Below, in pieces: positions 41 to 37,723 of a stretch of DNA of 64,000 bases. The number at the start of each line of letters is the position of its first letter. Positions within the stretch are counted from its first letter, which is position 1. The notes beneath the pieces are model-generated. The model searched no databases and was not told where the DNA came from. It saw only the letters and a program-made list of their open reading frames with translations. A program made the position numbers and the translations under genes. The stretch is from a virus, in the IMG/VR virus record IMGVR_UViG_3300042945_001689, positions 44,125 through 108,124 of that record. The stretch is one strand, 5' to 3'.

Positions 41-757
41 TTATTTTTTTCTTTTATCATTTGTTTTTAATCTAATTGTTTTTAATTCATGCTTTCCTAC
101 AGGAATATCTGATTCGTCTGTAGCATTTCTGTAAAAGTGTGTCCACTCACCAACTCTATTTTTTAATTGAGACACCTCTCCATATTTTTTATTTTTAATT
201 TCATCTTCTTTAGAAAAAACATAATCATTAATATCTAATTCATATTGGTTTATGTTTTGTAAAGATATTGGAACAATAGCAGCAATAGGAGTTTTTGCTG
301 GAATTGTTATAACAACATTTGGTTTTGTAACTTTGGCTGCTAGTGGCAATGGATATCTAAAAAAAGAAGTAGAAATAAGTGTTGTGTATAAATGAATTCC
401 ATCAATAAATAGATTTGGAACTGGCATTGTTAACAAAGTTGTATTTTCATCAGTAATAAATTTAGTAAATGTATCAAAACTTAGCGTTGCACTTCTTCTA
501 TTTTCATTGACATATTTGTTACCAGATAGGATAGTTATATGACCATCCTCTTTATCTGTATCAATTCCGTCCCAAATAAAACTAATATCTTCATCAAAAC
601 TAATTCCCCAACCTAATGTATTTGAAATTGATAACGGAAAACAATGATATGCGTGTGCATTTGACACATTGTCCATCCAATCTCTTTTAGCAGAAATTTG
701 AGAGATGTTTACACCAGAATTTGGCATCATGTATGCATTAAAAACTTTATTAGTCAT
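41..757 (-). CDS. DUF6065-like protein (paralog of 11982..12701)
   Basis: KRDWMD..HAYHCFPLSISNTLGW motif shared with 11982..12701; start moved to ATG 757, which overlaps the upstream stop. Confidence 0.6.
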   Translation of the reverse strand: MTNKVFNAYMMPNSGVNISQISAKRDWMDNVSNAHAYHCFPLSISNTLGWGISFDEDISFIWDGIDTDKEDGHITILSGNKYVNENRRSATLSFDTFTKFITDENTTLLTMPVPNLFIDGIHLYTTLISTSFFRYPLPLAAKVTKPNVVITIPAKTPIAAIVPISLQNINQYELDINDYVFSKEDEIKNKKYGEVSQLKNRVGEWTHFYRNATDESDIPVGKHELKTIRLKTNDKRKK

Positions 758-1430
758 TTGTTTCTTCATGAAGGTCTGGCCTATGATATTTTGCGCTATA
801 ATCAAGCATTGTTACTAACGAATATTTTGTTCCAGATACCACTGGCATTGCTGTATGAGGATACATATAGTTTGATGGAAAAATATATAAATCACCTGCC
901 TGTGGTTTAACTTTTATTCCTTGTAGTCTAAAATCCAACTCTCCACCTTCGTAATCATCATTTAAATATCCTACTAAAGAAACTACACAGTTATATGTAG
1001 GACCTTGATCATGATGCTCTTGAAAATGTTGTCCTGGACCATATTTTATAAAATTAAATGATTCCCAGTATCTTAGTTCTCCAACACGAAAAAAATGAGA
1101 GTAGTCTTTAACTGCTGGAAGTTGTAAGTCATAACAGTCCTGCCAGACTTCTTGCAGCAAAACTGATTGAACGCTTTTATCATTCAGTAAATTTTCTTTT
1201 CTATATTTAAAATCAACACAGTCTCTATATTCTGGAATTTTTTGGGCATATCCAACTAAAGCCTCTCTCCAAAAATAATTTGGATTTTTGCCTGTTAGAC
1301 TATTTTCTAGTCTACTAATTATTTTCATGTCTTTTTTAAATACATTTCTATAAACTGCTATTCCATCTGCAAGTAATTCTTTACTATCCCAAGTTGGATT
1401 TTCAACAACATTTGGTTCAAAATTAATCAT
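750..1430 (-). CDS. 2OG-Fe(II) oxygenase, prolyl 4-hydroxylase-like
   Basis: HHD, YLNDDYEGGEL, distal H and GTKY motifs. Confidence 0.9.
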   Translation of the reverse strand: MINFEPNVVENPTWDSKELLADGIAVYRNVFKKDMKIISRLENSLTGKNPNYFWREALVGYAQKIPEYRDCVDFKYRKENLLNDKSVQSVLLQEVWQDCYDLQLPAVKDYSHFFRVGELRYWESFNFIKYGPGQHFQEHHDQGPTYNCVVSLVGYLNDDYEGGELDFRLQGIKVKPQAGDLYIFPSNYMYPHTAMPVVSGTKYSLVTMLDYSAKYHRPDLHEETND

Positions 1431-2161
1431 TGTTGCCTTTCTGTGTAAGTATACTTATGTCCCAATTCATTAATATCTGTCATAATAACAATACAATATT
1501 TTGTTCCATTAACCATGTCCATTGACGCATGCTCATAAATATAATTAGATGGAAAAATTGCTATATCACCAAACTTTGGTTTATAAACTAAGTTGTCTAG
1601 CCTTGGAAAAAATAATTCTCCGCCTTCATAATCATCATTTAAATAAATTACAACAGAAACTGTTGTATTATATGCTGGACCGTGATCTGCATGAATTCTA
1701 AATTGCTGTCCTACACCTTCATACTTTACAAAATTAAATGCTTCATAATAGACCACATTAATTCCCCAATAACGAGCATAGTCATCAACACATAATTTTA
1801 AAGTATTGTAAATTTCTTCATACATATCAATTAATTCAGCATTTTGCTCATCTCTTGCTCCCAGAGAATAAGGATTATACTTAAAATCAGAGCAGTTTCT
1901 AGCATACTTTATTGGTTGATCTGAGTTTGTAACTTTTGCTTCATTCCACTTATACCTTGTTTGTCCATTTAAATTATTTTCTAATATACTTAAATATTTT
2001 TCACAATTTTCTTTTGAAATTGCATTATTATAGATATTTAAACCTAATCCTGGATTGCTTACTTTAATATTATTAAAAGTTTTGTCTGGCATTCTAAAAG
2101 ATGCAGATTCTGACCTATCTTTTGTAAACCAAGGATTTTGTGATTCATTTACTTCAATCAT
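1427..2161 (-). CDS. 2OG-Fe(II) oxygenase, prolyl 4-hydroxylase-like
   Basis: HAD, YLNDDYEGGELFF, HAS..GTKY. Confidence 0.9.
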   Translation of the reverse strand: MIEVNESQNPWFTKDRSESASFRMPDKTFNNIKVSNPGLGLNIYNNAISKENCEKYLSILENNLNGQTRYKWNEAKVTNSDQPIKYARNCSDFKYNPYSLGARDEQNAELIDMYEEIYNTLKLCVDDYARYWGINVVYYEAFNFVKYEGVGQQFRIHADHGPAYNTTVSVVIYLNDDYEGGELFFPRLDNLVYKPKFGDIAIFPSNYIYEHASMDMVNGTKYCIVIMTDINELGHKYTYTERQQ

Positions 2162-2219: not shown

Positions 2220-3524
2220 TTATTCAATACTTTGATCTCTTGTGTCATATACTAACATATTTTCTGTAAAGAAGTTGTCGTATGGTTCACAGTTAATCGA
2301 ATATACTGTTTCTTCATAATTTAGAACGTCTAATGAATCAATATTGACAAACCCTAACTCTTCATATGAATATACCATATATGTGTCATCAATTGAATCA
2401 ATTCTTAAGAATTTTGAAACATTATCTTTTTTAGTTAAAATATAATGCGTTTCAGAATATGCATCGCCGTTAAGAAGATATACTTTATCTACTTGCTTTG
2501 ATGATACTGCATAAACTGTAGTTTCTCTTAAATTGGTTTCATTTAGGATTAAGTCTTCTGCTGTCCAATTTAACCAATCAGCGTTATGTGCTGAGGCTTG
2601 TTCTGGAAGTTCCATAGCAATTAAAACATCTCCTACAACTATGTCTTTGGCTTCTTTTCTGCCATTGGTAGTCATGATGCCTGTATTGCTGGCAATGGAA
2701 TACTCTGAGAATCCAAACCCTGGGAAAAATGGTCCGAATGGTGGTGGGAATGGTGGTGGGAATGGTGGTGGGAATGGTGGTGGGAATGGTGGTGGGAATG
2801 GTGGTGGTGCGAAACTTGGGAAGAACGGAAAGAACGGGAAGAATGGGAAAAATGGGAAGAATGGGAAGAATGGTGAAAGTGTAGTAACGCTAGAAGTTGT
2901 TGCTCCTAATGATGCTCCATTAGCATTTGTTGCAGTAACAGTGTAAGTCTGTGAAGTTCCTGCTGTATCAGCAATAGTTGATGATGTTGCTGATGATGCT
3001 AAATCTCCAGAAGAAGTTCCGTCAGAACCAGTAACGTTATGCTTAGATAAAGCCTTTCCACCAGTGGCACCAATTGTCCAACTGATTGTGTTTTGGTTAA
3101 CACCAGCACTGGCGACCGCACCTTGAGGCGCTTGTGGAACTGTTGTTGCAGTTACTGAAGAAGAAGTTGTTCCGCTTGCAGTTCCTGCAGCGTTTGTTCC
3201 TTTTACTGTAAATGTGTATGAAGTATTTGATGCTAATCCCTGAAAAGTATAAGAAGGAGTGGAAGAGCCAGTATTTACTTCGTAAGTTGAGGGGGTTGTT
3301 GTAATGATATAAGCAGTTGCTGCTGGAGATCCCGCTGGCAATGTCCAAGTAAGGCTTACTGCTCCACCTGTGCCTGCTGCAGATGCTGCTGAAGTAGTAT
3401 TAGCAGTAGCAAGATAAGGACGAGATGTTCCTACATCTGTACCACTTAAGGAAGTAACATTATCTGGTTGCAAAAAGTTGTCTTGTGCTGAAGACTTGAT
3501 ACCTCTTTTTTTACTAACTGCCAT
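2220..3524 (-). CDS. FN3-domain virion/fibre protein with (PFF)6-(PPPF)6 tract and C-terminal Hint (intein-like) domain
   Basis: FN3-like LTW..P / YTFTVKGTNAAG; Hint block A SIASNTGIMTTNG..KDIVVGD, block B SETH, block F/G VYSINCEPYDNFFTENMLVYD. Confidence 0.75.
   Translation of the reverse strand: MAVSKKRGIKSSAQDNFLQPDNVTSLSGTDVGTSRPYLATANTTSAASAAGTGGAVSLTWTLPAGSPAATAYIITTTPSTYEVNTGSSTPSYTFQGLASNTSYTFTVKGTNAAGTASGTTSSSVTATTVPQAPQGAVASAGVNQNTISWTIGATGGKALSKHNVTGSDGTSSGDLASSATSSTIADTAGTSQTYTVTATNANGASLGATTSSVTTLSPFFPFFPFFPFFPFFPFFPSFAPPPFPPPFPPPFPPPFPPPFPPPFGPFFPGFGFSEYSIASNTGIMTTNGRKEAKDIVVGDVLIAMELPEQASAHNADWLNWTAEDLILNETNLRETTVYAVSSKQVDKVYLLNGDAYSETHYILTKKDNVSKFLRIDSIDDTYMVYSYEELGFVNIDSLDVLNYEETVYSINCEPYDNFFTENMLVYDTRDQSIE
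2736..2873 (-). repeat. Coding tandem repeats: 6 x 12 bp (PPPF) and 6 x 9 bp (PFF)
   Basis: gaatggtggtgg x6 and gaagaa(c/t)gg-type x6 read directly on + strand. Confidence 0.95.
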
Positions 3525-3555: not shown

Positions 3556-5499
3556 TTATGCTTTTAAATCTCCCATTACAACCCAAAGATTTGCTGCTCT
3601 CTTAAATAATGTTGCTGATGACCATTGTGCACGAAGTTTTAATCCAGGAGTTGCATTTACTGTTGTTGTTCCTGGTGTTACTGCTTCAATTGTCACTTCG
3701 CCAGTATTTGTTCGAAGAATATCAATTGATGTTCCGACTGGATAATTAAGTGTAGCATCTGTTGGGATTAAAACCTTAACTGCAGTTCCACCTGTATGTG
3801 AAACTTCAATTAATGAGTCTCTTTCATTTGCTGCTGAAAGGGTGTATTCTGCTGTCTTCTGAATAATTGATGTCCGTGATGGAACACCTTCTTTTGTTTG
3901 TGTACCGTCGGTAAAAATAAATCCACCAGCAGTTGTACTAATAACTGAAGTTCCGTTTACTTTAAGATCTTTTCCTGAAGCAAGGTTGATATGCTCGGAA
4001 GATGTCCAAGAATCTGTAGAATCTACCCAGTTAAAGGTTTTGTCTGTTGCGCCTTTAAGTGTAATACCTCCGCCATCTGCAGTTGTATCAGTAGGAGTTC
4101 CTGTATCTCCAAGAACAATGTTTTTGTCTTCAATAACAAGGTTAGTTGAGTTAAGGTTTGTTGTAGTTCCATTAATCGTTAAGTTTCCAGAAAGAGTTAA
4201 GTCTGTTCCAGAAACGGCTCCTGTAAATGTTGCTCCAGTAAGAGAAGCCTTAGCGTCTAACTGTGTTTGAATGGCTGAAGTTACCCCATCAACGTAGTTA
4301 AGTTCTGTAGTTGATGTGGTTACACCATCAAGAATGTTAAGTTCTGCTGCTGTAGAAGTAATAGAACTTCCAGCAATCTGTAAAGTTGTGGCGTTTACTT
4401 CGCCTGCAGAGCCATAAATAACTGCTTTGCTATTTGCAATAGTTCCTGCTGATGATCCATCTACTAAGTTAAGTTCTGCTGCTGTAGAAGTAATAGAAGT
4501 GCCAGCAATTTGTAAAGTTGTAGCATTTACTTGGCCTGCTGGACCATAAATTACTGCCTTGCTATCTACAATTGTTCCAGCAATAGATCCATCTATTAAA
4601 TTAACTTCTGATGCTGTTGCAGTGACATCTGTTGCACCTGCTGAAAGAACATGTGTATGACCTGTTCCTGCTTTTCCATCAATCTGTCCTTGAATTCCAG
4701 CAGAAACTCCTTCTAGGTACCCTATTTCTGTTGAAGATAGATCTCCAATTGATGTGGTACTTGGAAGAGTTACTGTTCCAGTAAATGTAGGACCTGCTAG
4801 TGCTGCTTTAGCATCTAACTGAGTTTGAATTGCTGAGGTTACACCATTAAGATAACTAATTTCAGTATTTGATACATCTGCAACAACTGCTTGCTTATTG
4901 TCTAATTGTGTTTGAATTGCTGAAGTAACACCAGCAAGATATCCTAATTCTGTTGATGTTGCACCAGTTGCACTAAGGTTTCCTGTTGTAACAACAGTTC
5001 CGCTTACGTTTGGAAATGTAATAGTTCTATCGGCTGTAGGATCTGTTACTGTTAAAGTGGTTTCATAATCGTTTGCTGTAGTACCTTCAAAAACAATTCC
5101 TGTTGTAGCATTAATTGTTGTGCTGTTAATAGTAGTGGTTGTACCACTTACTGTTAAATCTCCTGAAACGGTAACGTTTCCACTACCATCGGACAAAACA
5201 ACTGTGCCTGTTGCATCTGGAAATGTAATTGTACGGTCTGCTGTAGGATCTGTTACGGCAAGAGTTGTTTCAAATGCGTTGTCTGTAGCACCTTCAAATG
5301 TAATGCTTGAACCAAATGATGGGTTTACTGTAGAGGATTGGTCAATAAAGTAGTCAATATTTGCCCAGTGGTTAGTGCCATCACCGATCTTAAACTTATT
5401 AGTGTCTGATTCCCATCCGATTTCACCAGCATTTAGTATTGGGTTTGCTGATGTCCATTGTGCTGCAGTACCTCTGCGTTGCTGCATTCTTGTTGCCAT
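3556..5499 (-). CDS. Tail fibre protein with Mtd-N-like N-terminal domain
   Basis: MQQRRGTAAQW..NPIL..GEIGWESDTNKFKIGDG; internal GVTSAIQTQLD repeats; C-terminal domain shared with 14890..15690. Confidence 0.8.
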   Translation of the reverse strand: MATRMQQRRGTAAQWTSANPILNAGEIGWESDTNKFKIGDGTNHWANIDYFIDQSSTVNPSFGSSITFEGATDNAFETTLAVTDPTADRTITFPDATGTVVLSDGSGNVTVSGDLTVSGTTTTINSTTINATTGIVFEGTTANDYETTLTVTDPTADRTITFPNVSGTVVTTGNLSATGATSTELGYLAGVTSAIQTQLDNKQAVVADVSNTEISYLNGVTSAIQTQLDAKAALAGPTFTGTVTLPSTTSIGDLSSTEIGYLEGVSAGIQGQIDGKAGTGHTHVLSAGATDVTATASEVNLIDGSIAGTIVDSKAVIYGPAGQVNATTLQIAGTSITSTAAELNLVDGSSAGTIANSKAVIYGSAGEVNATTLQIAGSSITSTAAELNILDGVTTSTTELNYVDGVTSAIQTQLDAKASLTGATFTGAVSGTDLTLSGNLTINGTTTNLNSTNLVIEDKNIVLGDTGTPTDTTADGGGITLKGATDKTFNWVDSTDSWTSSEHINLASGKDLKVNGTSVISTTAGGFIFTDGTQTKEGVPSRTSIIQKTAEYTLSAANERDSLIEVSHTGGTAVKVLIPTDATLNYPVGTSIDILRTNTGEVTIEAVTPGTTTVNATPGLKLRAQWSSATLFKRAANLWVVMGDLKA

Positions 5500-6018: not shown

Positions 6019-7845
6019 TTATGCCTCTATGTATGTCTTTGAAACCTTAACAGAAGTATCTGCTGCTGCTGCAGTAACTTGAAGAAGAACATTTCCACCG
6101 CTATAAACAGCATTTGTTGTTCCAAGTTCTGTATTGCTTATAACATTAGCATACTCTGTTACATAAACATTATTGTCACCATCTATAGCAACAAGCATTT
6201 CAATTACTTCAATGTTGCCAGACTTTTTCATCTGAATAACATACTTAGCAGCAGAATATGTTGTTGCTGAGAATGTATCAATTGTTGTTGCTGAAGTGCC
6301 AGCAGTTGCTGTTGCAGATCCAACAAGAGCATCTGGTAGAGCAAGGCTAGTACCTGTTGCTGCTCCAAGTTCTGGAGTTACAAGAGTTGGTGTATTAGCA
6401 AATACCAGTGCACCAGTTCCTGTTTCATCAGTTACTGCTGAAGCAAGGTTTGCTGAAGAAGGGGTTCCCAAAAATGTTGCAACACCTGCTGCCAAACCAG
6501 AAACATCATTTGCAATTCTTACTGTAAGTGTATTGTTTGCACCGCTGATTGTCTTGTTTGTAAGAGTTTCGGCTGCATCTTTAAGTGATGTTCCATTAAC
6601 CTTAAATTCTTTTCCTGAAGCAAGGTTTAAGTGTTCAGATGAGGTCCATGCATCAGTTGCATCTACCCATGAGAAAGTCTTGTCTGTAGCACCCTTAAGA
6701 GTAATACCACCACCATCAGCACCTGCATCTGTTGGAGATGTTACTGCACCAAGTGTAAGGTTCTTGTCATCAACTGTGATTTCTGTTGAGTTAATTGTAG
6801 TTGTTGTACCGTTAACTGTTAGGTCCCCTGAAAGAACCAAAGATGTACCAGTTGCTGCACCAATGTTTGGTGTTACGAGTGTTGGTGTATTAGCAAAAAC
6901 AAGTGCTCCAGTACCAGTCTCGTCTGAAATAATTCCAGCGAGTTCTGATGAAGATGTTGCTGCAAGTACGTTTAACTTATCTGTTGTTACAACAAGAGTC
7001 TTTGTGTTTGGAATAGTTGTACCATTGATAGAATCAGCAGTAGCAACACCAAGTGCTGGAGTTGTAAGTGTTGGGCTTGTAAGTGTCTTATTTGTAAGTG
7101 TCTGTGTGTTAGTTGTTCCAACTACCGCACCAGTTGCACCATGTGCTTCTGTAAGGTTGCCATGAGTTGTAAGATCTGAAGAAGTAGCCTTAGCATCCAA
7201 CTGAGTCTGGATTGCTGAAGTTACGCCATCTACGTAGTTAAGTTCTGTAGCGGTTGCAGTAAGTGATGTACCAGCAATTTGTAGAGTTGTAGCATTTACT
7301 TCTCCTGCTGCTCCATAAATAACTGCCTTACCATTTGCAATAGTCCCTGCAGATGATCCATCTACTAAGTTGAGTTCAGAAGCACTTGCAGTCAAATCCG
7401 AAACATTTGCTACTTGAACTGTAACTGTGTTGTTTGTATAAGAAATTGTTTTGTTGCTTAATGTTTGTGTTGCATCATTAAGTGTTACAGTGCCTGTAGC
7501 GTTTGGAAGTGTGATAGTACGATCTGCTGTTGGATCTGCTACTTCAAGAATTGTCTCATAGTCATCTGCTGTTGCACCTTCAAATGAAATTGAAGAACCA
7601 AATACACCAACGGCTGCTGGGGCTGACCACTCAACTCCGTATGTTGCACTTGAATTTGCTGTGAGGACCTGTCCGTTTGTACCAATGGCTAAACGTGCTA
7701 CTGCATCATCTGCACTACCAACAATTAAGTCACCCTTAGCATCTACGGTTCCTGCGGTAAGAACATTCTTACCATTAACGGTTGCTGTTGATCCTTCAAC
7801 AACTAATCCCGATTTTACTCTAAAATCTTTATTTACTGTTGCCAT
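6019..7845 (-). CDS. Tail fibre / virion structural protein
   Basis: Thr/Ala/Gly-rich, TLTNKT repeats, blocks shared with 3556..5499. Confidence 0.75.
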   Translation of the reverse strand: MATVNKDFRVKSGLVVEGSTATVNGKNVLTAGTVDAKGDLIVGSADDAVARLAIGTNGQVLTANSSATYGVEWSAPAAVGVFGSSISFEGATADDYETILEVADPTADRTITLPNATGTVTLNDATQTLSNKTISYTNNTVTVQVANVSDLTASASELNLVDGSSAGTIANGKAVIYGAAGEVNATTLQIAGTSLTATATELNYVDGVTSAIQTQLDAKATSSDLTTHGNLTEAHGATGAVVGTTNTQTLTNKTLTSPTLTTPALGVATADSINGTTIPNTKTLVVTTDKLNVLAATSSSELAGIISDETGTGALVFANTPTLVTPNIGAATGTSLVLSGDLTVNGTTTTINSTEITVDDKNLTLGAVTSPTDAGADGGGITLKGATDKTFSWVDATDAWTSSEHLNLASGKEFKVNGTSLKDAAETLTNKTISGANNTLTVRIANDVSGLAAGVATFLGTPSSANLASAVTDETGTGALVFANTPTLVTPELGAATGTSLALPDALVGSATATAGTSATTIDTFSATTYSAAKYVIQMKKSGNIEVIEMLVAIDGDNNVYVTEYANVISNTELGTTNAVYSGGNVLLQVTAAAADTSVKVSKTYIEA

Positions 7846-8974: not shown

Positions 8975-9091
8975 ATAAGAATTATAACATAATTACAAGA
9001 ATATGTAAAAAGTTGACAAAAAACAAAACTTCATGTTATACTGGTAGGTAACACCATAAAAAATGGTGTTTTGTTTTCTAAGGAGGAAACT

Positions 9092-9658
9092 ATGATTAAA
9101 TTTATCGAAAGAAACAAAGAGGTCATTAGTATACTCGGCATACTGACTTTAGTAACGACATTGTCAAACGTTGCTAATGCTGAAACACGAATAAGTGACA
9201 AAAATAATTTGAGTATAGAACAGGCTCAGGAGCAGGAAAACGCCTCGAAAGAGGTTTTTTTGGTTTCTAAAGAAGAAAATAATAAAATTAACAAAAAATA
9301 CAAATATGGAACCCCCCTTGAAAAAGACGAACTAATTAAAATATTAAAGCAAGTAGGCTTTAAAGGATATTCACTAAAGGTTGCTTGGGCAACGGTAATG
9401 AAAGAATCTATGGGCACTCCTAACTCTTGGAATCCTAATAGACAGACTGGAGATAATTCTTATGGCCTATTTCAAATCAATATGCTTGGAGGACTGGGCG
9501 AAGAAAGAAGAAGCAAGTTTAATCTAAAGTCTAACGAAGATCTGTTTGATCCAGTTAGAAATGCAGAAATCGCTTATCATATGAGTAATGGTGGTGAAGA
9601 TTGGTCTGCCTGGAAAGGCATTACCTGGAAAACTAAAGAGTGGATGGAAAGATATTAA
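9092..9658 (+). CDS. Lysozyme-like / lytic transglycosylase with N-terminal signal/TM segment
   Basis: catalytic ES, DNSYGLFQINM, DWSAW motifs; AGGAGG SD before ATG 9092. Confidence 0.8.
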   Translation: MIKFIERNKEVISILGILTLVTTLSNVANAETRISDKNNLSIEQAQEQENASKEVFLVSKEENNKINKKYKYGTPLEKDELIKILKQVGFKGYSLKVAWATVMKESMGTPNSWNPNRQTGDNSYGLFQINMLGGLGEERRSKFNLKSNEDLFDPVRNAEIAYHMSNGGEDWSAWKGITWKTKEWMERY

Positions 9659-10709: not shown

Positions 10710-11300
10710 TTAATTTTTATTAACATATTTATTTCTAATTTCATTTTCAAATATTCTGTATTTAGTTGGAATCCAAAAAGATGGTGTGGTATATCTTGTG
10801 CCTTTTGTTATCTCCCGCACACCGTGTATATACATTGTGTTTGATGGGAAAAATACCAATGTACCAGCACTAGGTTTAAAGTCTAAGTTATGATCTGGGA
10901 AGTATATCTCTCCGCCTTCGTAGTCATCGTTCAAATATATAACAGCCCCATAGTCAACTATAAATGCTTCATTTGGATGTCCTTCTGGATCTTCTCCATC
11001 TGCATGTAGTGGTTGAAACTCTCCTGCGTCCCATCTTCTTATTCCAGCAGAATTTGTTTCAAGAGGTCTTCCAAAATAAAGTTCTATCTCTTGCTGTACT
11101 CTATCAATTGCTTTTTTTAGTATGGCATGGGCCTCTGGCTTTTCAGAAGCAAGATTTCTTGTTACTTTGTCTGGTATTCCAGCCATTGAATTAGAACCCC
11201 AAGAAATTGTATCGTCTATTGATGATAATACAATGTCTAAATCTTTCTTTGAAACAAAATTTTCTTTTATAACAATATTTTTTGTAGATCCTATTTTCAT
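10710..11300 (-). CDS. 2OG-Fe(II) oxygenase, prolyl 4-hydroxylase-like
   Basis: HAD, YLNDDYEGGEIYF, HGV..GTRY. Confidence 0.9.
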   Translation of the reverse strand: MKIGSTKNIVIKENFVSKKDLDIVLSSIDDTISWGSNSMAGIPDKVTRNLASEKPEAHAILKKAIDRVQQEIELYFGRPLETNSAGIRRWDAGEFQPLHADGEDPEGHPNEAFIVDYGAVIYLNDDYEGGEIYFPDHNLDFKPSAGTLVFFPSNTMYIHGVREITKGTRYTTPSFWIPTKYRIFENEIRNKYVNKN

Positions 11301-11309
11301 TTTTTCTCC

Positions 11310-11468
11310 TTAATTAGGTAACTCTGATTGCTCTGCTATTTCTTTTACTTTGTCAAAGTTTGATGCATCAACCATTGAAGATAAAACATAACATATCCAT
11401 TGATAAGATGACTTTTCGCAATACCCCTTTGACTGCATAATTTTAGCAATATCTTCTATAATTTCCAT
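11310..11468 (-). CDS. Small hypothetical protein (52 aa)
   Basis: hand-translated MEIIEDIAK..ELPN*; fills gap, start overlaps upstream stop. Confidence 0.55.
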   Translation of the reverse strand: MEIIEDIAKIMQSKGYCEKSSYQWICYVLSSMVDASNFDKVKEIAEQSELPN

Positions 11469-11989
11469 TACTTATACTCCAAAAATATGTTAATTGCATA
11501 TCTTGTTCCAGAATGAACCTGATGCGCTATGTGCATATATGGGTAGTTTGATGGAAATAATACCATAGAATTTTTTACTGGCTTAACTTTAATGTCAAAG
11601 TTGCAAAATTCTATCTCTCCGCCTTCGTAGTCATCGTTTAAATATATAACGCAACTAGTAACTCTGTTAGAAACATGCTTTGAGCCATCATCATAGTGCA
11701 TTACATACTTTTCTCCAGGCTCGTATTTTAATGCCTCTATTGTAAGATATGTTAGTTCTGGAAGAAAATATAAATCACGATATGCACTTAAAGAACTATG
11801 CAGCGCCTCATCTATAATTTTAAAAATTTCTTTTTGCAACTCTTTGTCTTGAAAGTATATGACTGAATTAGATCTATCTTCTGTTTTTACATTTAGTGGT
11901 TTTGTCCACTCATACTTATTAATTTCTTTAATTAATAAATCTGAATTATTCAAAACATTATAATAAAACTCTATTCCGTTTTTATTCAT
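11468..11989 (-). CDS. 2OG-Fe(II) oxygenase, prolyl 4-hydroxylase-like
   Basis: HYD, YLNDDYEGGE, HIA..GTRY. Confidence 0.9.
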   Translation of the reverse strand: MNKNGIEFYYNVLNNSDLLIKEINKYEWTKPLNVKTEDRSNSVIYFQDKELQKEIFKIIDEALHSSLSAYRDLYFLPELTYLTIEALKYEPGEKYVMHYDDGSKHVSNRVTSCVIYLNDDYEGGEIEFCNFDIKVKPVKNSMVLFPSNYPYMHIAHQVHSGTRYAINIFLEYK

Positions 11990-12701
11990 TTTTTTTCCTT
12001 ATGTCTTTGGTATGCAACTTTATTTTTTTTACTTCGTGTGATCCAACAGAATTGCCAAATTGATCAGTAGCGCTTCGATAAAAATCAGAAAACTTTGGAA
12101 TTTTATTATTTTCTAATATTACATTTCCATAGTCTGTTACTTTTTTATGGTATTCATTAATATTATGTGGATTATTATTTAAAGTAATTGTAGAATTTTG
12201 TAAATTTGTTAAAGATATTGGCAAAACAGAAATAATTGGAGAGTTTGCTTTAAACGTAATAACAGTGTTTGGCCTTGTAATTTTCCAAGATACTGGTATA
12301 GGTTTTTGCCAAAAACTAGAACTAATTAAGTTTGTTAACGGAACTGCGCCATCAATGTCTAAATTTGGTGGACCAAAAAACAATAAACTAGTTTCTGGAT
12401 TTGTTTCAAAAAACCAACCTATATTAAAAATTAGTGTTGCAGTTCCTCTGTTAGTGTCAACAAATTCTTTACCTTTTAAAACCGTTATGTGATTTCCTTC
12501 AGAAGAGTCGTTTCCATCCCAAACAACAGAAATATCTTTGGGGAATGAAAATCCCCATCCCATTTGATTTGTTAACGATAAAGGAAAACACCTGTATGCA
12601 TGTTGATCAAATGTTTTATCCATCCAGTCTCTTTTTAAAGAAAGTTGTTCTATTCTTGCACCTAAACCTGGATTTACTTCATATGCATTGATTTCATACA
12701 T
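11982..12701 (-). CDS. DUF6065-like protein
   Basis: KRDWMD..HAYRCFPLSLTNQMGW; paralog of 41..757. Confidence 0.6.
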   Translation of the reverse strand: MYEINAYEVNPGLGARIEQLSLKRDWMDKTFDQHAYRCFPLSLTNQMGWGFSFPKDISVVWDGNDSSEGNHITVLKGKEFVDTNRGTATLIFNIGWFFETNPETSLLFFGPPNLDIDGAVPLTNLISSSFWQKPIPVSWKITRPNTVITFKANSPIISVLPISLTNLQNSTITLNNNPHNINEYHKKVTDYGNVILENNKIPKFSDFYRSATDQFGNSVGSHEVKKIKLHTKDIRKKNE

Positions 12702-13364
12702 TTATTGTTTTTGCCTTAGTGGAGAGTTTGCTCCGTGTACCCTATCATTATAGTCAAACATTGTTACTGCAGAATATTTTATTCCTTCTTTTACAGGCAA
12801 AGCAGCATGAGAATATAAAAAGTTTGATGGGAACAAAACAATATCTCCCTCTTCTGGAGTATAAGTATAGTTTATGTATGGGAAAAACAATTCTCCTCCA
12901 GTATAGTTGTCATTTAAATACATAACTGTAGAAACAGTACATACATAACTAAAACCATGATCTGAATGAACCTGAAAGTGTTGATCTTTTCCATATCTAA
13001 CAAAATTAACTGCTTCTTGATACTCTAAGTTTAAATTAAAAAGTGAAGAATAATGTTTTACACATTCCTGTAGTCGTTCATCTATGTCAAAGTATATTTT
13101 TCTTAAATCTGACATAGTTGCTCTTGGGTTATTTACAAAATCATTTTTTCTTACTTTAAAGTCTACGCAATCTCTATAATCTTTTCTTGTTTCATAATCA
13201 CCAACTTGTGCTTCGCTCCATTTGAAAAAATTATCGCCATGTTTTTCAATAACATCTTCAAGTCGCTGAACAAGATTTAAGTCTTTATTAAGCGCATTTT
13301 TATAAACGAATACAGCAGGCGCAGGATTTTCTATAGTGGTTGTTTCTATAAAGTTAGATAACAT
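12702..13364 (-). CDS. 2OG-Fe(II) oxygenase, prolyl 4-hydroxylase-like
   Basis: HSD, YLNDNYTGGEL, HAA..GIKY; close paralog of 750..1430 (YRDCVDFK). Confidence 0.9.
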   Translation of the reverse strand: MLSNFIETTTIENPAPAVFVYKNALNKDLNLVQRLEDVIEKHGDNFFKWSEAQVGDYETRKDYRDCVDFKVRKNDFVNNPRATMSDLRKIYFDIDERLQECVKHYSSLFNLNLEYQEAVNFVRYGKDQHFQVHSDHGFSYVCTVSTVMYLNDNYTGGELFFPYINYTYTPEEGDIVLFPSNFLYSHAALPVKEGIKYSAVTMFDYNDRVHGANSPLRQKQ

Positions 13365-13403
13365 TTAATCTCCTTTTTGGTCAATATATAGTATACTACA
13401 TAT

Positions 13404-13988
13404 ATGGACAATATGTATAAGGTACAACCTGGCTATTTTGGGGACTCTGTTGATAATATCATTGTTTTAGAAAATTTTATAAGTCCAGATGACTTAGATA
13501 AATTTTACTTTTACTCTAAATCAATAGAAAATTTTTTATCCATACCTGATGACAACTGGGACAACAGGGTTCATAGTTCAGAGTTATTTAAAAATAGTAA
13601 TAAGGCATTATTTCTTAAACTTTTAGAATATCAAAAAAAATTAAAAATAGAAATAGAAAAAAGATTTAACTTTGTTTTACAAGAAAATTCACCATCAATA
13701 GTTCTTTGGAGACCTGGAGACGATCAGCCTCCTCATGCAGACAAACAGGAGCAAGATGGTAATCCAAATTCTTATCCTGAAAATGATGTGGCATCCCTAA
13801 TGTATATAAACGACAATTATGATGGTGGAGAAATATACTTTACTAACCAGGATATAACCATAAAGCCCAAGGCTGGTTCTGCAATATTTTTTCCTGGAGA
13901 TATACATTATACTCATGGGGTAACAAAAGTATTAAATAACAACAGATATACATCGCCAGCATTTTGGCGTGTAAAAAACTTTAATTAA
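13404..13988 (+). CDS. 2OG-Fe(II) oxygenase, prolyl 4-hydroxylase-like
   Basis: HAD, YINDNYDGGE, HGV..RY; resembles 10710..11300. Confidence 0.9.
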   Translation: MDNMYKVQPGYFGDSVDNIIVLENFISPDDLDKFYFYSKSIENFLSIPDDNWDNRVHSSELFKNSNKALFLKLLEYQKKLKIEIEKRFNFVLQENSPSIVLWRPGDDQPPHADKQEQDGNPNSYPENDVASLMYINDNYDGGEIYFTNQDITIKPKAGSAIFFPGDIHYTHGVTKVLNNNRYTSPAFWRVKNFN

Positions 13989-14890
13989 ATATTATCCCTA
14001 ACATCAAAAACCAACATATTTTCTGTAAAGAAATTATCATATGGTTCGCAATTGATTGAATAAACCGTATCTTCATATTCTATAATATCGAACACTTCTA
14101 TTGGAACAAACTGTAGATCAGCAAAAGAGTATACAAAATATGAACTATCAATTTCTGATGTTTGTATAAATTTAACAACATTATCTTTTTTAGTTAAAAT
14201 ATAATGCGTTCCCGAATATGCATCTCCGTTAATTATATAAAGTGTACCGATAGGTCTTGAGGTAATAGAAACAACCTCTGTTTCTCTTAAATTGGTTTCA
14301 TCTAATAATAAATCTTCTTTACTCCAAGTTGTCCAATCAGAAACATTGTTGGTATCTAAATCCATAGCAACCAAAACGTCTCCTACTACAATATCTTTAG
14401 CGTCTTTTCTTCCATTAATAGTTATAATTCCAGTATTGCTTGCAATGGAATATTCTGAATAGACTCCAAACCCTGGGAAAAATGGTGGTATTGGGAACGG
14501 TGGTGGGAACGGTGGTGGGGCAACGGCGAACGGTGGTGGGAACGGTGGTGGGAACGGTGGTGGGAACGGTGGTGGTGCTGGGGCTACTGGAGTAACAGAA
14601 TTACTTGCTGCAGATTCTAACGATGTAGCAACACCATTTCCTAGTTTTACTTTAAATGTATAGGCTGTTCCATTTGACAAACCACTAACAGTTATTGGAG
14701 AAGTTGAAGATGTTCCTGTTATATCTGATGGAGTTGAAGTTGCAGTGTAAGTTGTTCCAATTGGTTTGCCTAAATAGGCTGGTGCTGTAAATGAAACTGT
14801 TGCTGTTTCATTACCTTCTGTTGCAGTTCCAATTGTTGGAGTTCCTGGTTGTATTCCTCCACTACCTGAAGATATTGGTGGTAATGGCAT
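13985..14890 (-). CDS. FN3-domain protein with (PPPF)n tract and C-terminal Hint domain (paralog of 2220..3524)
   Basis: FN3 (GLSNGTAYTFKV); PPPF x6; SEY-SIASNTGI..SGTH..VYSINCEPYDNFFTENMLVFD; start ATG 14890 in TAATG overlap. Confidence 0.75.
   Translation of the reverse strand: MPLPPISSGSGGIQPGTPTIGTATEGNETATVSFTAPAYLGKPIGTTYTATSTPSDITGTSSTSPITVSGLSNGTAYTFKVKLGNGVATSLESAASNSVTPVAPAPPPFPPPFPPPFPPPFAVAPPPFPPPFPIPPFFPGFGVYSEYSIASNTGIITINGRKDAKDIVVGDVLVAMDLDTNNVSDWTTWSKEDLLLDETNLRETEVVSITSRPIGTLYIINGDAYSGTHYILTKKDNVVKFIQTSEIDSSYFVYSFADLQFVPIEVFDIIEYEDTVYSINCEPYDNFFTENMLVFDVRDNI
14495..14575 (-). repeat. Coding 12-bp tandem repeats (PPPF x4 + x2)
   Basis: gaacggtggtgg units on + strand. Confidence 0.95.
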
Positions 14891-15690
14891 TATGCACTCA
14901 GATCGCCAATTGCAATCCAAGTATTGGTTGCTCGTTTAATTAATGTACAAGATGAATACTGTGTTCTTAATTTTGCTGCATTTGAAGAAACTTGAGGTGT
15001 GCAATTTAGTGTAACTCCTGCAGTGACTACTACTGTTGTTGCTCCAGTTCCAGTTTGAATAATTGTAATTTGTGAACCAATTGCAAATGCTTGAGTTGCA
15101 TTAAGTGGAATAGTAACTGTATTTGCAGTTGATGTTAAATTCATTTCAATAATTTTATATGCATCTGACAAAACCAATGCGTGATTTGCTGTTTTTTCTA
15201 AAATAGTAAAATCTAATGCAGATTTAGTATCTTGAACTGCTTTGACTGCAGTTGGTGTTGCTGCTTTAACTGATGAAGTCTCTGATGTTGAATCTGACAA
15301 TTGAACAACTCCAGGTGTTGAAACTGATGCTGCTGTAGGTGCAGCCCATTTAAGACCAAATGTGCCCTGTGTTGAGTCTGCAGTTAAAATATGTCCATCG
15401 CTACCAACTGTTAAATTATCTAAATTATTATTTGATGTCCCTACTAAAAGATCGCCTTTAGCGTCAATGACAGTTTCTTCTACAGCATTTGTTAAAGTTG
15501 CATCAATTGCATCAATTCTTGTATCTATATCATCTAGATACTTTGAAATACCTGCGGTTGCTGTGCCTTCTGGCTCTGCTTCTTGTCCCCAATGATAATA
15601 TTTAAGTGCAACCTGTATGTCGGCTGGATCAGCCATTGCTGGAATTTTTGCTAGGGGATACTTAGAACTTCCTATATTTGTGGCTGCCAT
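14890..15690 (-). CDS. Tail fibre protein
   Basis: GVVQLSDSTS..AATPTAVK fibre repeat; C-terminal domain shared with 3556..5499. Confidence 0.75.
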   Translation of the reverse strand: MAATNIGSSKYPLAKIPAMADPADIQVALKYYHWGQEAEPEGTATAGISKYLDDIDTRIDAIDATLTNAVEETVIDAKGDLLVGTSNNNLDNLTVGSDGHILTADSTQGTFGLKWAAPTAASVSTPGVVQLSDSTSETSSVKAATPTAVKAVQDTKSALDFTILEKTANHALVLSDAYKIIEMNLTSTANTVTIPLNATQAFAIGSQITIIQTGTGATTVVVTAGVTLNCTPQVSSNAAKLRTQYSSCTLIKRATNTWIAIGDLSA

Positions 15691-16669: not shown

Positions 16670-17416
16670 CTAAGAAATATGGACTGTAAAGGATTTGACC
16701 TTTACGGCAGAATCTAGATCAGTTCTTATCTGTGGAACAACATTTGCTCGTTTCATTTTTTCATTTAAAATATACAGTGTTTGAGAAATTGAAAAGTCAT
16801 AAGTATACTTATATTTTAGATTAGCAACAAATTGTGAAACATTTACAGCGGGAATAGAATAGGTCCTTAGCCAAACCTCAACATTATTATCAAATGTTTC
16901 TATTTCAAAATTATAAACTATCTCTACCCTTGTGCCAATCTCTAATTGTTTAAAATTTAACTTCTGTGTTTCTGTATTCCACAAACTTACTTTTCCTATT
17001 GGCAAATGTTTTTCTATTGTTTGTCCTTTAGAATCATTTAATAGGTCTACCCAGCCCTCGTCACCTTTATCTAATCCTAAAAATATTTGCTCTTGGTTTA
17101 AATTTTCGTAATATGCCCAACCAGATTTTGTTGGTTGTATTTCAGCACCTTCTTTATTTATATATAAAGTTTCTCCAGCAGGTCCTCTTTCACCCTTTGG
17201 TCCCCTTTCTCCCTTTTCTCCAGGATCCCCTTTATCGCCTTTTGGACCAGCCTCTCCAGCCCTTCCAGTTAGTCCTTGAGGTCCTTGTGGCCCTACAAGT
17301 ATTCTATAGTCTATATCGGGCTCTGGAGCCGTTTTTTCTTCTTCAACAACTTTGCCATAAGAAGGTTTATTTTTTTGATTACCTGGAATTTCTGCTTTAC
17401 GACTAATACTCATCAT
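16670..17416 (-). CDS. Collagen-like (Gly-X-Y) structural protein
   Basis: about 13 consecutive G-X-Y triplets (GPQGPQGLT..GPAGE). Confidence 0.8.
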   Translation of the reverse strand: MMSISRKAEIPGNQKNKPSYGKVVEEEKTAPEPDIDYRILVGPQGPQGLTGRAGEAGPKGDKGDPGEKGERGPKGERGPAGETLYINKEGAEIQPTKSGWAYYENLNQEQIFLGLDKGDEGWVDLLNDSKGQTIEKHLPIGKVSLWNTETQKLNFKQLEIGTRVEIVYNFEIETFDNNVEVWLRTYSIPAVNVSQFVANLKYKYTYDFSISQTLYILNEKMKRANVVPQIRTDLDSAVKVKSFTVHIS

Positions 17417-35160: not shown

Positions 35161-35874
35161 AGCCTTATATTCTTTTACAAAGTTCATAACTTTTTTTTCT
35201 GCGTTTGTCTCATACACTAATACACCATAAAACCCTTTACTATTTAAATCATCTAAAAAGTCAGCGAATTCTTTTTTAGTAAACGTTGTAGAGTCTGAGT
35301 GGTTAGCATGAATAGTGTTTTCATCATCGTCTTTAAATATAGGTCCAATGGAAACTATTGCTTTTGAATTATCTATATCATACTCACCGCTTATATACCT
35401 TGAATATGGCAAAATAACATTTTGATCATGCTTTTTTGCAGCGTCAAACGTAAACTTATTTGTTGTAGAAACAAATAATTTTGGTAACTTTAGTCCTTTC
35501 ATTGCACTAAATACATCTAAAAATTTAATAAGATAGTTAGATTTGTCTATGTTTGAAGAAAGATCATTGACATCTCCAATTACCCCTCCATACTCTCTTT
35601 CATGTTCTTTAGGCCACCCAGATATTAAATTAATTTCTATTGATCCTGGAGAAATTTCATCTAAAGAATTGCATAAAAAAGAAAGATACTGTGGAGATAT
35701 AAGATATGGCCTTATTGCTATCATGTATGTAAAGTTTTGATATTTATCTATACATCTTGCTACACGAACAAAATCTGCATTTTCAATACCAGTAGCAAAT
35801 AATATACCATCAAAACCACTGGCGTGGGCATTTTTAATTTCTTCAAACCAACCACTAAAATAATATATCTTCAT
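35140..35874 (-). CDS. Short luciferase-like (SsuD/LLM) monooxygenase-like protein
   Basis: GFDGIL, MIAIRPYLISPQY, INLISG; start moved to MKIYYF. Confidence 0.6.
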   Translation of the reverse strand: MKIYYFSGWFEEIKNAHASGFDGILFATGIENADFVRVARCIDKYQNFTYMIAIRPYLISPQYLSFLCNSLDEISPGSIEINLISGWPKEHEREYGGVIGDVNDLSSNIDKSNYLIKFLDVFSAMKGLKLPKLFVSTTNKFTFDAAKKHDQNVILPYSRYISGEYDIDNSKAIVSIGPIFKDDDENTIHANHSDSTTFTKKEFADFLDDLNSKGFYGVLVYETNAEKKVMNFVKEYKALKFGGK

Positions 35875-36143
35875 TAATAATCCTGCAACCATGCTAAATA
35901 ATTTGCTATTGCAAAAATAAACAAATAGATAAAGAAAATATACTTCATAGTGTATAATTGTAGCATGGACACTATAGAAAAAGAAAACACCTGTGCTTAT
36001 TGCAATCACCCTGCCGTCTATAATGATATAGGATTAAATGATAAAGGTATGTTTGCAGTATTGGATGTATGTAAGTGCCACCTTGAAAAGTATGCTCCAT
36101 AATCGCTATTGACAAACTGACTTCTGCAAGATATACTTAATAC

Positions 36144-36485
36144 ATGGAATCATTACTATTAGCAATTGCATTGTTTTTGTCATCCCCTGCTGGACAGGAT
36201 CCAAATAGGGAGCCAATGTGGTTTGATGGATGTCAAAACATCACAGAACAACAATTAGATAGTTCAACCTGGCAATATTCTTGCGGGGATAATGATATGA
36301 TAGAACCACAAACTATAGAAGAATGGGTGGAACCAAATGCGGCAATCGAACACTTTAGCCTCACAAAACAAACAAAAGCGTTACCTAAAAAACAAAAAGC
36401 GTCTACAATCAAAGCCAAGCCTGTCAAGGCAGCAAAGACGGGAACAGGCAATAAGAGAACTCATGCTTCTAAACTACTTAAGTAA
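36144..36485 (+). CDS. Secreted/membrane hypothetical protein
   Basis: signal peptide, Lys-rich tail; leaderless promoter 36109-36137. Confidence 0.65.
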   Translation: MESLLLAIALFLSSPAGQDPNREPMWFDGCQNITEQQLDSSTWQYSCGDNDMIEPQTIEEWVEPNAAIEHFSLTKQTKALPKKQKASTIKAKPVKAAKTGTGNKRTHASKLLK

Positions 36486-36670
36486 AACAGCAAAGCCAAG
36501 TCAAGAATCAGTTTCTAATAATGATAAATAAAGTGAGTGGTCCTGATGATGATGGCTATATGCTTTATGCTAATTCAAACAGACTGCTAGGATTTTGGGG
36601 CAATTTGTGTGGACTAGTGGCTACATTTTTTATTAATCAATCAATAAAACATGGAGATTATTTTGAAATA

Positions 36671-37057
36671 TTAGACCAAGACTAGGTCTATTGTAGTTTT
36701 TTTAAGTTCTTCTTCTGTCCAAAGTCCAACTTTAGAATCTCCGCCATATGATTTTGCCAAACCAGAATTTATAAGTTGATCATTAACACTTACCTCTGAC
36801 TTTAAATATATTTTGCCAAGATATCTTCCATACTTATCAGGTTTAGATACTTCTAGTTTTACAAGTTTGCCTTCTAGGTTCTTAACTAAAAACTCTTTAA
36901 GGGCTTTTCCAAGTGGTGTATTTTTTTCTGCAGTATCAATACCAGATAATCTAATTCTTTCTTTGTGCCATACACTAAATCCAAGATCAATAAATACATC
37001 ACAGGTATCACCATCAACTACCTTGTCAATTTTTGTATAATATGTATACATAGCCAT
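36671..37057 (-). CDS. Thermonuclease (SNase-like)
   Basis: VVDGDT, RIRLSGIDTAE, DKYGRYLG. Confidence 0.9.
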   Translation of the reverse strand: MAMYTYYTKIDKVVDGDTCDVFIDLGFSVWHKERIRLSGIDTAEKNTPLGKALKEFLVKNLEGKLVKLEVSKPDKYGRYLGKIYLKSEVSVNDQLINSGLAKSYGGDSKVGLWTEEELKKTTIDLVLV

Positions 37058-37127
37058 GTTGACAATTATAACATCGTTTGGTACAATTGAACTATAGAAA
37101 CAGCCTATTTAACACTTTAGAAAGGTC

Positions 37128-37385
37128 TTGGTTATGAAAGAACTTATTCACTTTACAGCAGATTGGTGTCAACCATGCAAGGCTATGGCGCCAATTGTTT
37201 ATGAATTTAAAGATAAACATCCAGAAATTATATACACAAAGATAGATGTAGATGAAAATCCAGATGCTGCTCAATTTTTTAATGTAAAAGGAGTTCCAAC
37301 TTTTATATCTCAAATAGAGGGACTTAATCATGATCGAAGAACTGGTAAGTCTACTTTGTTTCAATTAGAATCACTGTTCGGATAA
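37128..37385 (+). CDS. Thioredoxin
   Basis: WCQPC, IDVDE, VPTF. Confidence 0.9.
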   Translation: MVMKELIHFTADWCQPCKAMAPIVYEFKDKHPEIIYTKIDVDENPDAAQFFNVKGVPTFISQIEGLNHDRRTGKSTLFQLESLFG

Positions 37386-37391
37386 AACTTA

Positions 37392-37465
37392 GCACCAGTA
37401 GCCAAGTTGGTTAAGGCCCCGAACTCATAATTCGGTTATCGTAGGTTCAAGTCCTACCTGGTGTA
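37392..37465 (+). tRNA. tRNA-CAT (Ile2 or elongator Met)
   Basis: cloverleaf, CCGAA-CT-CAT-AA-TTCGG; C4/C5 in the acceptor stem hint at Ile2. Confidence 0.9.
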
Positions 37466-37469
37466 CTAA

Positions 37470-37543
37470 TGGTCTGTAGCACAATTGGCAGTTGCACTCG
37501 GCTGTTAACCGAGATGTTGTAGGTTCGAGTCCTACCAGACCAG
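37470..37543 (+). tRNA. tRNA-Asn(GTT)
   Basis: CTCGG-CT-GTT-AA-CCGAG; acceptor TGGTCTG/CAGACCA. Confidence 0.93.
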
Positions 37544-37546
37544 CAA

Positions 37547-37618
37547 GGCACCATCGTCTATCGGTTAGGACATCGCCCTTTCACGGCGAAAAGACGGGTT
37601 CGACTCCCGTTGGCGCTA
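37547..37618 (+). tRNA. tRNA-Glu(TTC)
   Basis: TCGCC-CT-TTC-AC-GGCGA; one A-C mismatch in acceptor stem. Confidence 0.88.
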
Positions 37619-37619
37619 C

Positions 37620-37692
37620 GCCCTCATAACTCAGGGGATAGAGTCACGGACTTCTAATCCGTTGGTCGCAGGTTCGAATCCTGCTGAGGGCA
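37620..37692 (+). tRNA. tRNA-Arg(TCT)
   Basis: ACGGA-CT-TCT-AA-TCCGT; acceptor GCCCTCA/TGAGGGC. Confidence 0.93.
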
Positions 37693-37723
37693 CAAATATG
37701 ATAGAATTAGTAATGGAGATATT

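Follow-up and report, generated by a model that had tools for sequence, protein, structure and literature searches.

Hint domains carry out a self-processing chemistry that is known from inteins, Hedgehog proteins, bacterial intein-like (BIL) domains and the release of toxins. Among phage fibres, the Peptidase S74 chaperone is, to our knowledge, the only self-removing C-terminal domain described so far. In a Hint domain an ester or thioester forms at the first residue with the help of a histidine in block B, and when the position following the domain (+1) lacks a nucleophile the outcome is cleavage or attack by some other nucleophile (PMC4031507). Hedgehog and BIL Hints use this N-terminal (thio)ester chemistry only, and BIL domains, which are non-mobile and reside in variable surface proteins, mainly cleave rather than splice (PMC4031507). 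Here, we analyzed a 64-kb stretch of viral DNA (the window), the right-hand part of the 108,124-bp IMG/VR record IMGVR_UViG_3300042945_001689, which is judged 99% complete. It encodes two paralogous proteins, A and B, in which fibronectin type III (FN3) domains are followed by a proline/phenylalanine tract and a C-terminal Hint domain, and the gene for each lies directly behind a fibre gene. We propose that the Hint domain is probably a self-cleaving cap that uses the N-terminal step only.

A sequence-only reading of the window had suggested that both proteins end in non-canonical Hint domains and had set the predicted fold beforehand as the test. The domain of protein A, folded alone by AlphaFold2 with an alignment of 27 family members, yielded a model with a predicted local distance difference test score (pLDDT) of 92 and a predicted template-modelling (TM) score of 0.87, and the fold was that of a Hint domain. 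A Foldseek search of the PDB with this model returned 54 matches at E <= 1e-3, and all chains among the matches listed were intein, BIL or Hedgehog Hint structures; the top hits had TM scores of 0.64-0.81 and a probability of 1.0. The best match was BIL2 of Tetrahymena BUBL1 (6y75, 6tmm; TM 0.72-0.77, E 3e-7), the second a C. thermocellum BIL domain (2lwy; TM 0.70/0.81), and the Ssp DnaB mini-intein (1mi8), gp41-1, Npu DnaE and other mini-inteins were also found. Hedgehog (1at0) ranked 28th (TM 0.58/0.64). In BFVD, the top viral matches (TM up to 0.89) were a tail protein of Phage NCTB and proteins of uncultured phages that bear the labels 'Fibronectin type III' or 'Hint domain containing protein'. 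Sequence comparison gave the same picture, as a profile of the family matched 2lwy first among PDB chains (E 1.2e-8) and inteins next. A profile was needed for this: a single-sequence phmmer search of the PDB found no match. Pfam Intein_splicing (PF14890) was the sole catalytic-domain match and remained below threshold (22.9 and 17.0 bits, cutoff 35.8), and Pfam Hint (PF01079), Hint_2 (PF13403) and PT-HINT (PF07591) matched neither protein. None of ten diverse family members reached the Hint thresholds of Pfam, and an NCBIfam search came back empty; by these thresholds the domain lies outside all curated Hint families. Taken together, the predicted structure and the profile match indicate that the C-terminal domain of both proteins is a genuine Hint domain.

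The motifs of the domain bear this out. Just as the sequence-only reading had it, both proteins carry the junction SEY|SIASNTGI, keep the block-B histidine (YSETHYIL in A, YSGTHYIL in B), share an identical 19-residue stretch, VYSINCEPYDNFFTENMLV, and end in YD-TRDQSIE (A) or FD-VRDNI (B), only 5-7 residues past the Hint domain. The beta-fold, the serine as first residue and the block-B S-E-T-H or S-G-T-H are traits of the Hint superfamily. The C-terminal motif aligns position for position with blocks F and G of inteins (V-Y-D-L-x-V-E-x-x-H-N-F-x-A-x-G-I-L-V-H-N), with the block-F Asp replaced by Ser, the block-F His by Asp (..PYDNF..) and the terminal His-Asn by Tyr-Asp or Phe-Asp. These motifs are not a product of chance, since S276, H360 and S409-T420 are nearly all invariant in 18 aligned relatives. 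With its Tyr-Asp or Phe-Asp end, a Thr (A) or Val (B) at +1 and no C-extein to ligate, the domain departs from class 1 inteins, and in place of the insertion and sporadic presence of an intein it is terminal and present in every relative of the gene family that was found. Over 164 residues, the Hint domains of A and B share 63% of their amino acids (BLASTP E 6e-75), and their DNA is 71% identical, with a ratio of nonsynonymous to synonymous substitution rates (dN/dS) of 0.21 at dS 1.2, indicating that they are old duplicates and that both copies are under purifying selection. The 108-kb genome has these two Hint copies and no third.

The domains had been taken for cleavage-only or ligating Hints. 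The residues of the N-terminal step are indeed kept and no +1 nucleophile is conserved; however, the domains are no isolated oddities. A word-indexed search identified 33 close relatives, all with the order FN3, repeat tract, Hint. When 1.84 billion cluster representatives were searched exhaustively with HMMER, the family grew to 144 clusters at E <= 1e-3, with host proteins of 150 to 1,840 residues. In the 144 representatives the domain lies, with few exceptions, 0-15 residues from the C-terminus, leaving nothing substantial to splice. Searched against isolate phages by tblastn, the full-length protein had no match, and the Hint domain alone matched five jumbo-phage records only, at 24-29% identity. 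We counted conservation in an alignment of 122 family members with complete domains. At position 1, 91 members have Ser and 30 have Cys; the block-B His occurs in 115, and position 7 of block B is occupied by Ser (81) or Thr (38). The block-F residues E, P, Y and D occur in 105, 113, 96 and 108 members, respectively, and the position of the block-F Asp is Ser in 79. The terminal pair is Phe-Asp (41), His-Asp (30), His-Asn (26), Tyr-Asp (7) or Tyr-Asn (7). Every His-Asn member has Cys1, and the combination of Ser1 with His-Asn was found in none.

A family tree, for which the trait columns were left out of the alignment, has the Cys1...His-Asn forms on deep and scattered branches; they include jumbo-phage virion proteins of Yersinia fHe-Yen9-02 (gp333c) and Erwinia pEa_SNUABM_2 (gp110). 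The Ser1 forms make up two derived clades, His-Asp and Phe/Tyr-Asp, and the window copies belong to the latter. Judged from this tree, the phage family of terminal Hints is coherent and reaches back to canonical Cys1...His-Asn, and the window copies stand at its derived end. A coupled change from Cys to Ser and from Asn to Asp was considered and set aside, as the tree needs only 2 and 3 changes and a test on independent pairs had 1-2 pairs to work with. With so few trait changes the co-occurrence of Ser1 with ends other than His-Asn is inseparable from shared ancestry, and we regard the link between the Cys/Ser and Asn/Asp traits as suggestive.

The clades also have different flanks. In the Phe/Tyr-Asp clade, position -1 is Tyr, Asp or Asn, +1 is variable (T, V, S, A, R or Y), and the 3-12 residues after the domain follow the pattern x-[RKP]-D, with Asp at +3 of the tail in at least 90% of relatives. 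The His-Asp clade has Lys at -1, Ser at +1 and a tail of 4-5 residues; its junctions (P0046-P0106; for example HD|SFSI and HD|SRSV) resemble an intact splice junction with Asp replacing Asn, and its members might still splice onto a tiny C-extein. In the His-Asn clade, position -1 is variable, most members have Lys at +1 or +2, and the tail is often a lysine followed by the stop; many Cys1...His-Asn relatives (P0111, P0130, P0148, P0152, P0155 and others) end His-Asn-Lys-stop or have Lys at +2. Some members contain several Hint domains (P0125, of 1,840 residues, P0123 and P0174), and in P0125 a second Cys-Leu-Thr-Val-Asp-Thr start lies four residues past the first His-Asn, which recalls the tandem layout of BUBL. 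Phage NCTB encodes a lone 153-residue Hint-like protein (L002:3477-3938) that ends in ..LVHNKVD and has neither upstream cargo nor a Cys1 motif; its gene sits between those for a Hint-ended tail protein and tail fibres. Apparent stand-alone Hints of 106-151 residues were on contigs of 1-5 kb, and one of them (P0037) starts at the internal Met of ..IMTTNG..; we treated these as truncated gene calls.

Residues 52-116 of protein A match Pfam fn3 (E 2.7e-8), and an AlphaFold2 model of the full-length protein has two beta-sandwiches (strands 54-126 and 134-214) in addition to the Hint domain; protein B has one fn3 match (E 7e-5). Gene A has a Shine-Dalgarno sequence, AAGAGGAG, 7 nt ahead of its ATG. 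The true start of gene B is the ATG at 14890: it shares bases with the stop codon of the fibre gene ahead (TAATG), and relatives have the same MPLPP start. From this overlap gene B is predicted to be translationally coupled to that fibre gene. The Hint gene directly follows a fibre gene in 32 of 32 related IMG/VR loci. In all 16 loci checked, and in both window cassettes, this fibre carries one particular C-terminal domain (..KLRAQWSSATLFKRA.N.WVV.GDLSA), which is 40% identical between the two Hint-linked fibres of the window; an alignment of 18 sequences shows 22 invariant columns. Minor tail proteins of Gordonia and Mycobacterium phages end in this domain as well. In Gordonia phage Ali17, the minor tail protein with this domain is followed by an unrelated 198-residue protein without a Hint, and thus the fibre domain need not have a Hint partner. 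The window has a third fibre (6019-7845), which is without both the C-terminal domain and a Hint partner.

Given the fold, the match of the family profile to a BIL domain, the kept residues of the first step and the lack of a conserved +1 nucleophile, the domain is best read as a cleavage-only Hint. We envisage that the precursor, composed of FN3 cargo, aromatic/proline tract and Hint, would process itself in a single turnover by the first reaction only. We infer an N-to-O acyl shift, assisted by the block-B Ser-x-x-His, in which the Ser276 side chain (Ser148 in B) attacks the carbonyl group of the Tyr before it (Tyr275 in A); the resulting ester would then be resolved, most simply by water. 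The products would be a mature fibre-associated protein with a Pro/Phe tail ending in ..SEY and a free Hint domain of ~160 residues. Instead of serving splicing, Asp427 could help to resolve the ester, perhaps by acting as a general base. The terminal residue of an intein sits beside residue 1 in every solved Hint fold, and the placing of Asp427 next to Ser276 rests on the block-G alignment and this general feature of the fold. The mature protein would work with the fibre encoded just upstream, and the Hint domain would be a removable cap that keeps a sticky low-complexity tail soluble or in register until assembly.

Several observations weigh against this proposal. An oxyester at Ser1 is less reactive than a thioester, and the block-F Asp, which helps the first step in many inteins, is a Ser here, as in 79 of the 122 members. 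CEPYDNFFT is very strongly conserved, more so than catalysis is known to require, and may have a further role, for instance in binding. The terminal Asp and the x-[RKP]-D tail are conserved, which would be unexpected if all that follows the first step were irrelevant. In some inteins, moreover, a terminal Asp or Gln can cyclise (PMC4031507). The sequence-only reading had relied on Asp taking the place of the terminal Asn; the Asp is present, but it does not prove that C-terminal chemistry is lost. In light of the conserved Asp, the conserved tail and the cyclisation of Asp in some inteins, we do not rate cleavage by the N-terminal step higher than probable.

The same Tyr275-Ser276 ester could instead be attacked by an outside nucleophile, as in Hedgehog proteins and BUBL, such that the FN3 protein is coupled through its C-terminus either to the fibre or another virion protein (at a lysine or the N-terminal amine) or to a host envelope molecule (at a hydroxyl or amine group). 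The best structural match, Tetrahymena BIL2, points in this direction: in an ATP-independent reaction, BIL2 attaches the ubiquitin-like domain ahead of it to lysines by an isopeptide bond (PMC8616854). The placement of cargo before a Hint at the protein end is also the layout of Hedgehog, the synteny with a fibre bearing one particular C-terminal domain is strict, and most Cys1...His-Asn relatives have a Lys at +1 or +2. By analogy with the Asp of Hedgehog, the conserved Asp beside the ester could activate the incoming nucleophile. However, the acceptor is hypothetical, a bare Hint of ~150 residues has no extra region resembling the sterol-recognition region, and an oxyester at Ser1 is a poor acyl donor; we consider such a transfer unlikely. 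A module that is retained uncleaved, with the Hint fold staying on the mature protein as a stable distal binding or assembly domain, would account for the invariant CEPYDNFFT.NMLV block and other surface-independent conservation in excess of catalytic need, for the loss of the block-F Asp and the penultimate His in the Phe/Tyr-Asp clade, and for the lone cargo-free Hint-like protein encoded beside the fibre genes of NCTB. Yet 121 of the 122 members, some as low as ~25% in identity, start with Ser or Cys, and 115 retain the block-B His. This retention is hard to explain without catalysis, because a purely structural first residue behind a disordered linker would drift, and we judge a non-cleaving module to be improbable.

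We hold it very unlikely that the domain splices or ligates in the manner of type A BILs, in which case Asp would cyclise and free the 5-7-residue tail, and the tail would be joined to ..SEY through the +1 Thr or Ser or by aminolysis. Some inteins that end in Asp or Gln do splice (PMC4031507), and type A BILs ligate their two flanks even though they have no +1 nucleophile. Copy A also carries Thr at +1, the tail keeps its x-[RKP]-D pattern, and Lys at -1, Ser at +1 and a tail of 4-5 residues are all conserved in the sister His-Asp clade. By contrast, copy B and many closely related proteins have Val, Ala or Arg at +1, and the domain lacks both the penultimate His and the block-F His. A free peptide is also inefficient in the aminolysis of an oxyester, and the addition of a few residues has no apparent benefit. 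We retain cleavage by the N-terminal step as the probable function of the domain.

Coordinates in the window of the two Hint genes, their parts and their neighbours (strand as + or -; 2OG, 2-oxoglutarate).
Feature	Position	Strand	Basis
Gene A, 434-residue precursor: basic N-terminus, two FN3-like domains, Pro/Phe tract, Hint domain	2220-3524	-	open reading frame, translation, Pfam, AlphaFold2
FN3-like domains of A (cargo), residues ~52-214	2883-3371	-	Pfam fn3, AlphaFold2 strands
Pro/Phe tract of A, residues 217-275	2700-2876	-	sequence, composition
Hint domain A proper, S276-D427	2244-2699	-	AlphaFold2, Foldseek, profile vs PDB, conservation
Ser1 (Ser276) codon, Hint A	2697-2699	-	
Block-B His360 codon, Hint A	2445-2447	-	
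Terminal Asp427 codon, Hint A	2244-2246	-	
Seven-residue tail TRDQSIE beyond Hint A	2223-2243	-	
Gene B, 301-residue precursor: one FN3 domain, (PPPF)n tract, Hint domain	13985-14890	-	translation, Pfam
Pro/Phe tract of B, 23 Pro and 9 Phe in 44 residues, end ..PGFGVYSEY	14450-14581	-	composition
Hint domain B proper, followed by VRDNI	14003-14449	-	sequence, match to A
Ser1 (Ser148 of B) codon, Hint B	14447-14449	-	
Block-B His codon, Hint B	14204-14206	-	
Terminal Asp codon, Hint B	14003-14005	-	
Fibre gene directly upstream of gene A, 647 residues, Mtd_N-like N-terminus, ~115-residue C-terminal domain	3556-5499	-	Pfam, PHROG
Fibre gene directly upstream of gene B, 266 residues, Phage_fiber_2 repeat and ~115-residue C-terminal domain	14890-15690	-	Pfam
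~115-residue C-terminal domain of the two Hint-linked fibres	3559-3909, 14893-15243	-	
Two 2OG-Fe(II) oxygenases (1427-2161, 750-1430) and DUF6065 protein (41-805) downstream of gene A	41-2161	-	Pfam PF13640, PF19541
2OG-Fe(II) oxygenase downstream of gene B	13404-13988	+	Pfam PF13640
2OG-Fe(II) oxygenases downstream of gene B	12702-13364, 11468-11989, 10710-11300	-	Pfam PF13640
DUF6065 protein downstream of gene B	11982-12701		Pfam PF19541

The tract that precedes the Hint domain has a low complexity in the family as a whole. In protein A, 27 of its 59 residues are Pro and 23 are Phe, arranged as (PFF)6 and then (PPPF)6 up to the end ..PGFGFSEY, and its pLDDT is below 50 in AlphaFold2, so it is predicted to be disordered or extended. 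Across the family, we measured composition over the 40 residues upstream of position 1. Aromatic residues account for 17-35% of this stretch compared to 9-11% of the rest of the protein, and Pro for 18-34% compared to 7-8%; at least 20% aromatics precede the Hint domain in 82 of 120 members. The repeat itself differs from member to member, with the types (PFF)n, (PFFP)n, (PPPF)n, (FGFTP)n, (FGA)n and (GFSHYA)n.

Downstream of its Hint genes the window has, in total, six genes for 2OG-Fe(II) oxygenases and two for DUF6065 proteins. The nearest solved relatives of the oxygenases are the prolyl 4-hydroxylases of Bacillus anthracis and PBCV-1 (E ~1e-6). We compared oxygenases and tracts over 23 related loci, a comparison in which kinship was uncontrolled. 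All 10 loci with oxygenases right after the Hint gene have a Pro-rich tract (16-25 Pro in 85 residues). Of the 13 loci without such oxygenases, 11 have 1-7 Pro, in tracts of the FGA or GFSHYA type, and 2 have 14-15. Compared with window positions 10710-15690, two related loci (L013:1611-3270 and L014:5411-7070) have flanking genes that are 93-99% identical to those of the window and fibre and FN3-Hint genes that are only 64-70% identical; they have a (PFS/PFA)n tract and lack the five-gene oxygenase/DUF6065 block, in what looks like a natural cassette swap. These patterns suggest that the neighbouring oxygenases may hydroxylate the tract. A collagen-repeat protein in the same fibre module (16670-17416, - strand; Pfam Collagen E 5.6e-9) is another possible hydroxylase substrate. 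A bolder scenario, which we rate as quite unlikely, is that the phage chemically modifies its fibre appendages and the Hint domain is a removable 'follower' that holds the Pro/aromatic tract for the oxygenases and then, by means of its ester, couples the hydroxylated, adhesive tail covalently to the fibre tip or a host envelope molecule. Were it true, a Hedgehog-like conjugation reaction would operate in a bacteriophage.

The wider genome suggests a phage of low-G+C aquatic Actinobacteria. Its portal (L039:15684-17285; G000 35684-37285) is 47% identical to portals of ~125-130-kb Streptomyces siphoviruses of the cluster-BE type, and the window has a G+C content of ~35%; the two together led to the proposal of a low-G+C actinobacterial host. 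Within the fibre module, a lysozyme-like SLT_3 gene (9071-9658, +) lies on the opposite strand and is kept in related loci. The window also has a tRNA cluster (37392-37693, +) for Met, Asn, Glu and Arg and single genes for tRNA-Asp (28610) and tRNA-Thr (55889).

Our literature searches brought up no account of Hint domains as terminal modules of phage fibre proteins or of a fibre maturation of this kind. In the literature on Hint, intein-like or Hedgehog domains in phage tails, we found only inteins of terminases, ribonucleotide reductases and polymerases, toxin PT-HINT domains, and S74. Relatives of the present proteins have already been annotated automatically as 'intein domain' or 'Hint domain'. 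What appears to be new is the variant with Ser1 and a terminal Phe-Asp or Tyr-Asp, placed in a series from Cys/His-Asn through Ser/His-Asp to Ser/Phe-Asp; the location of the domain on a separate FN3 'partner' gene behind the fibre rather than on the fibre itself; and the link of the proline tract with prolyl-hydroxylase-like genes. If cleavage by the N-terminal step is correct, this large phage Hint family would be a second, independent route to self-removing C-terminal fibre caps. The active-site series would show a splicing site re-tooled for cleavage only, and could be useful to intein engineers who seek clean N-terminal cleavage or ligation without thiols. Finally, Pro tracts that travel with prolyl-hydroxylase-like genes suggest that phages may modify their host-binding appendages post-translationally.

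In its proposed chemistry the phage domain resembles a type A or B BIL or a Hedgehog Hint. Among known systems, type A BIL domains, reportedly described by Amitai in 2003 and Dassa in 2004, share the Hint fold (2lwy) and the lack of a +1 nucleophile with the phage domain. However, they have Cys1, a terminal His-Asn and host sequence on both sides, whereas the phage domain of the Phe/Tyr-Asp clade has Ser1, a Phe-Asp or Tyr-Asp end and Asp in place of the block-F His, and is found at the extreme C-terminus of fibre-module proteins, behind an aromatic/proline repeat. BIL2 of Tetrahymena thermophila BUBL1 (6y75, 6tmm) is the best structural match, but it has Cys1 and a terminal Asn, is eukaryotic with a ubiquitin-like cargo, and is only ~14% identical in sequence to the phage Hint. 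Like the phage proteins, Hedgehog (Hog domain, 1at0) places a cargo before a terminal Hint, uses the N-terminal (thio)ester step only, lacks a terminal Asn and has an Asp that aids ester resolution. Unlike them it is eukaryotic, a weaker structural match, and has Cys1 and a sterol-recognition region, for which the 5-7 residues after the phage Hint leave no room. Inteins that end in Asp or Gln (Amitai, Dassa and Pietrokovski 2004, in PMC4031507) likewise have Asp in place of the terminal Asn, but they are true inteins, inserted in conserved host proteins, with a +1 nucleophile and splicing activity. The Peptidase S74 chaperone (endosialidase CIMCD) of phage tail spikes and fibres is an analogue of the proposed cap in function, as a C-terminal domain that severs itself at a Ser once assembly is complete (PMC7824862). 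Its fold is unrelated and it uses a Ser-Lys dyad; the proteins described here have no Pfam match to Peptidase S74, and their fold is that of a Hint domain.

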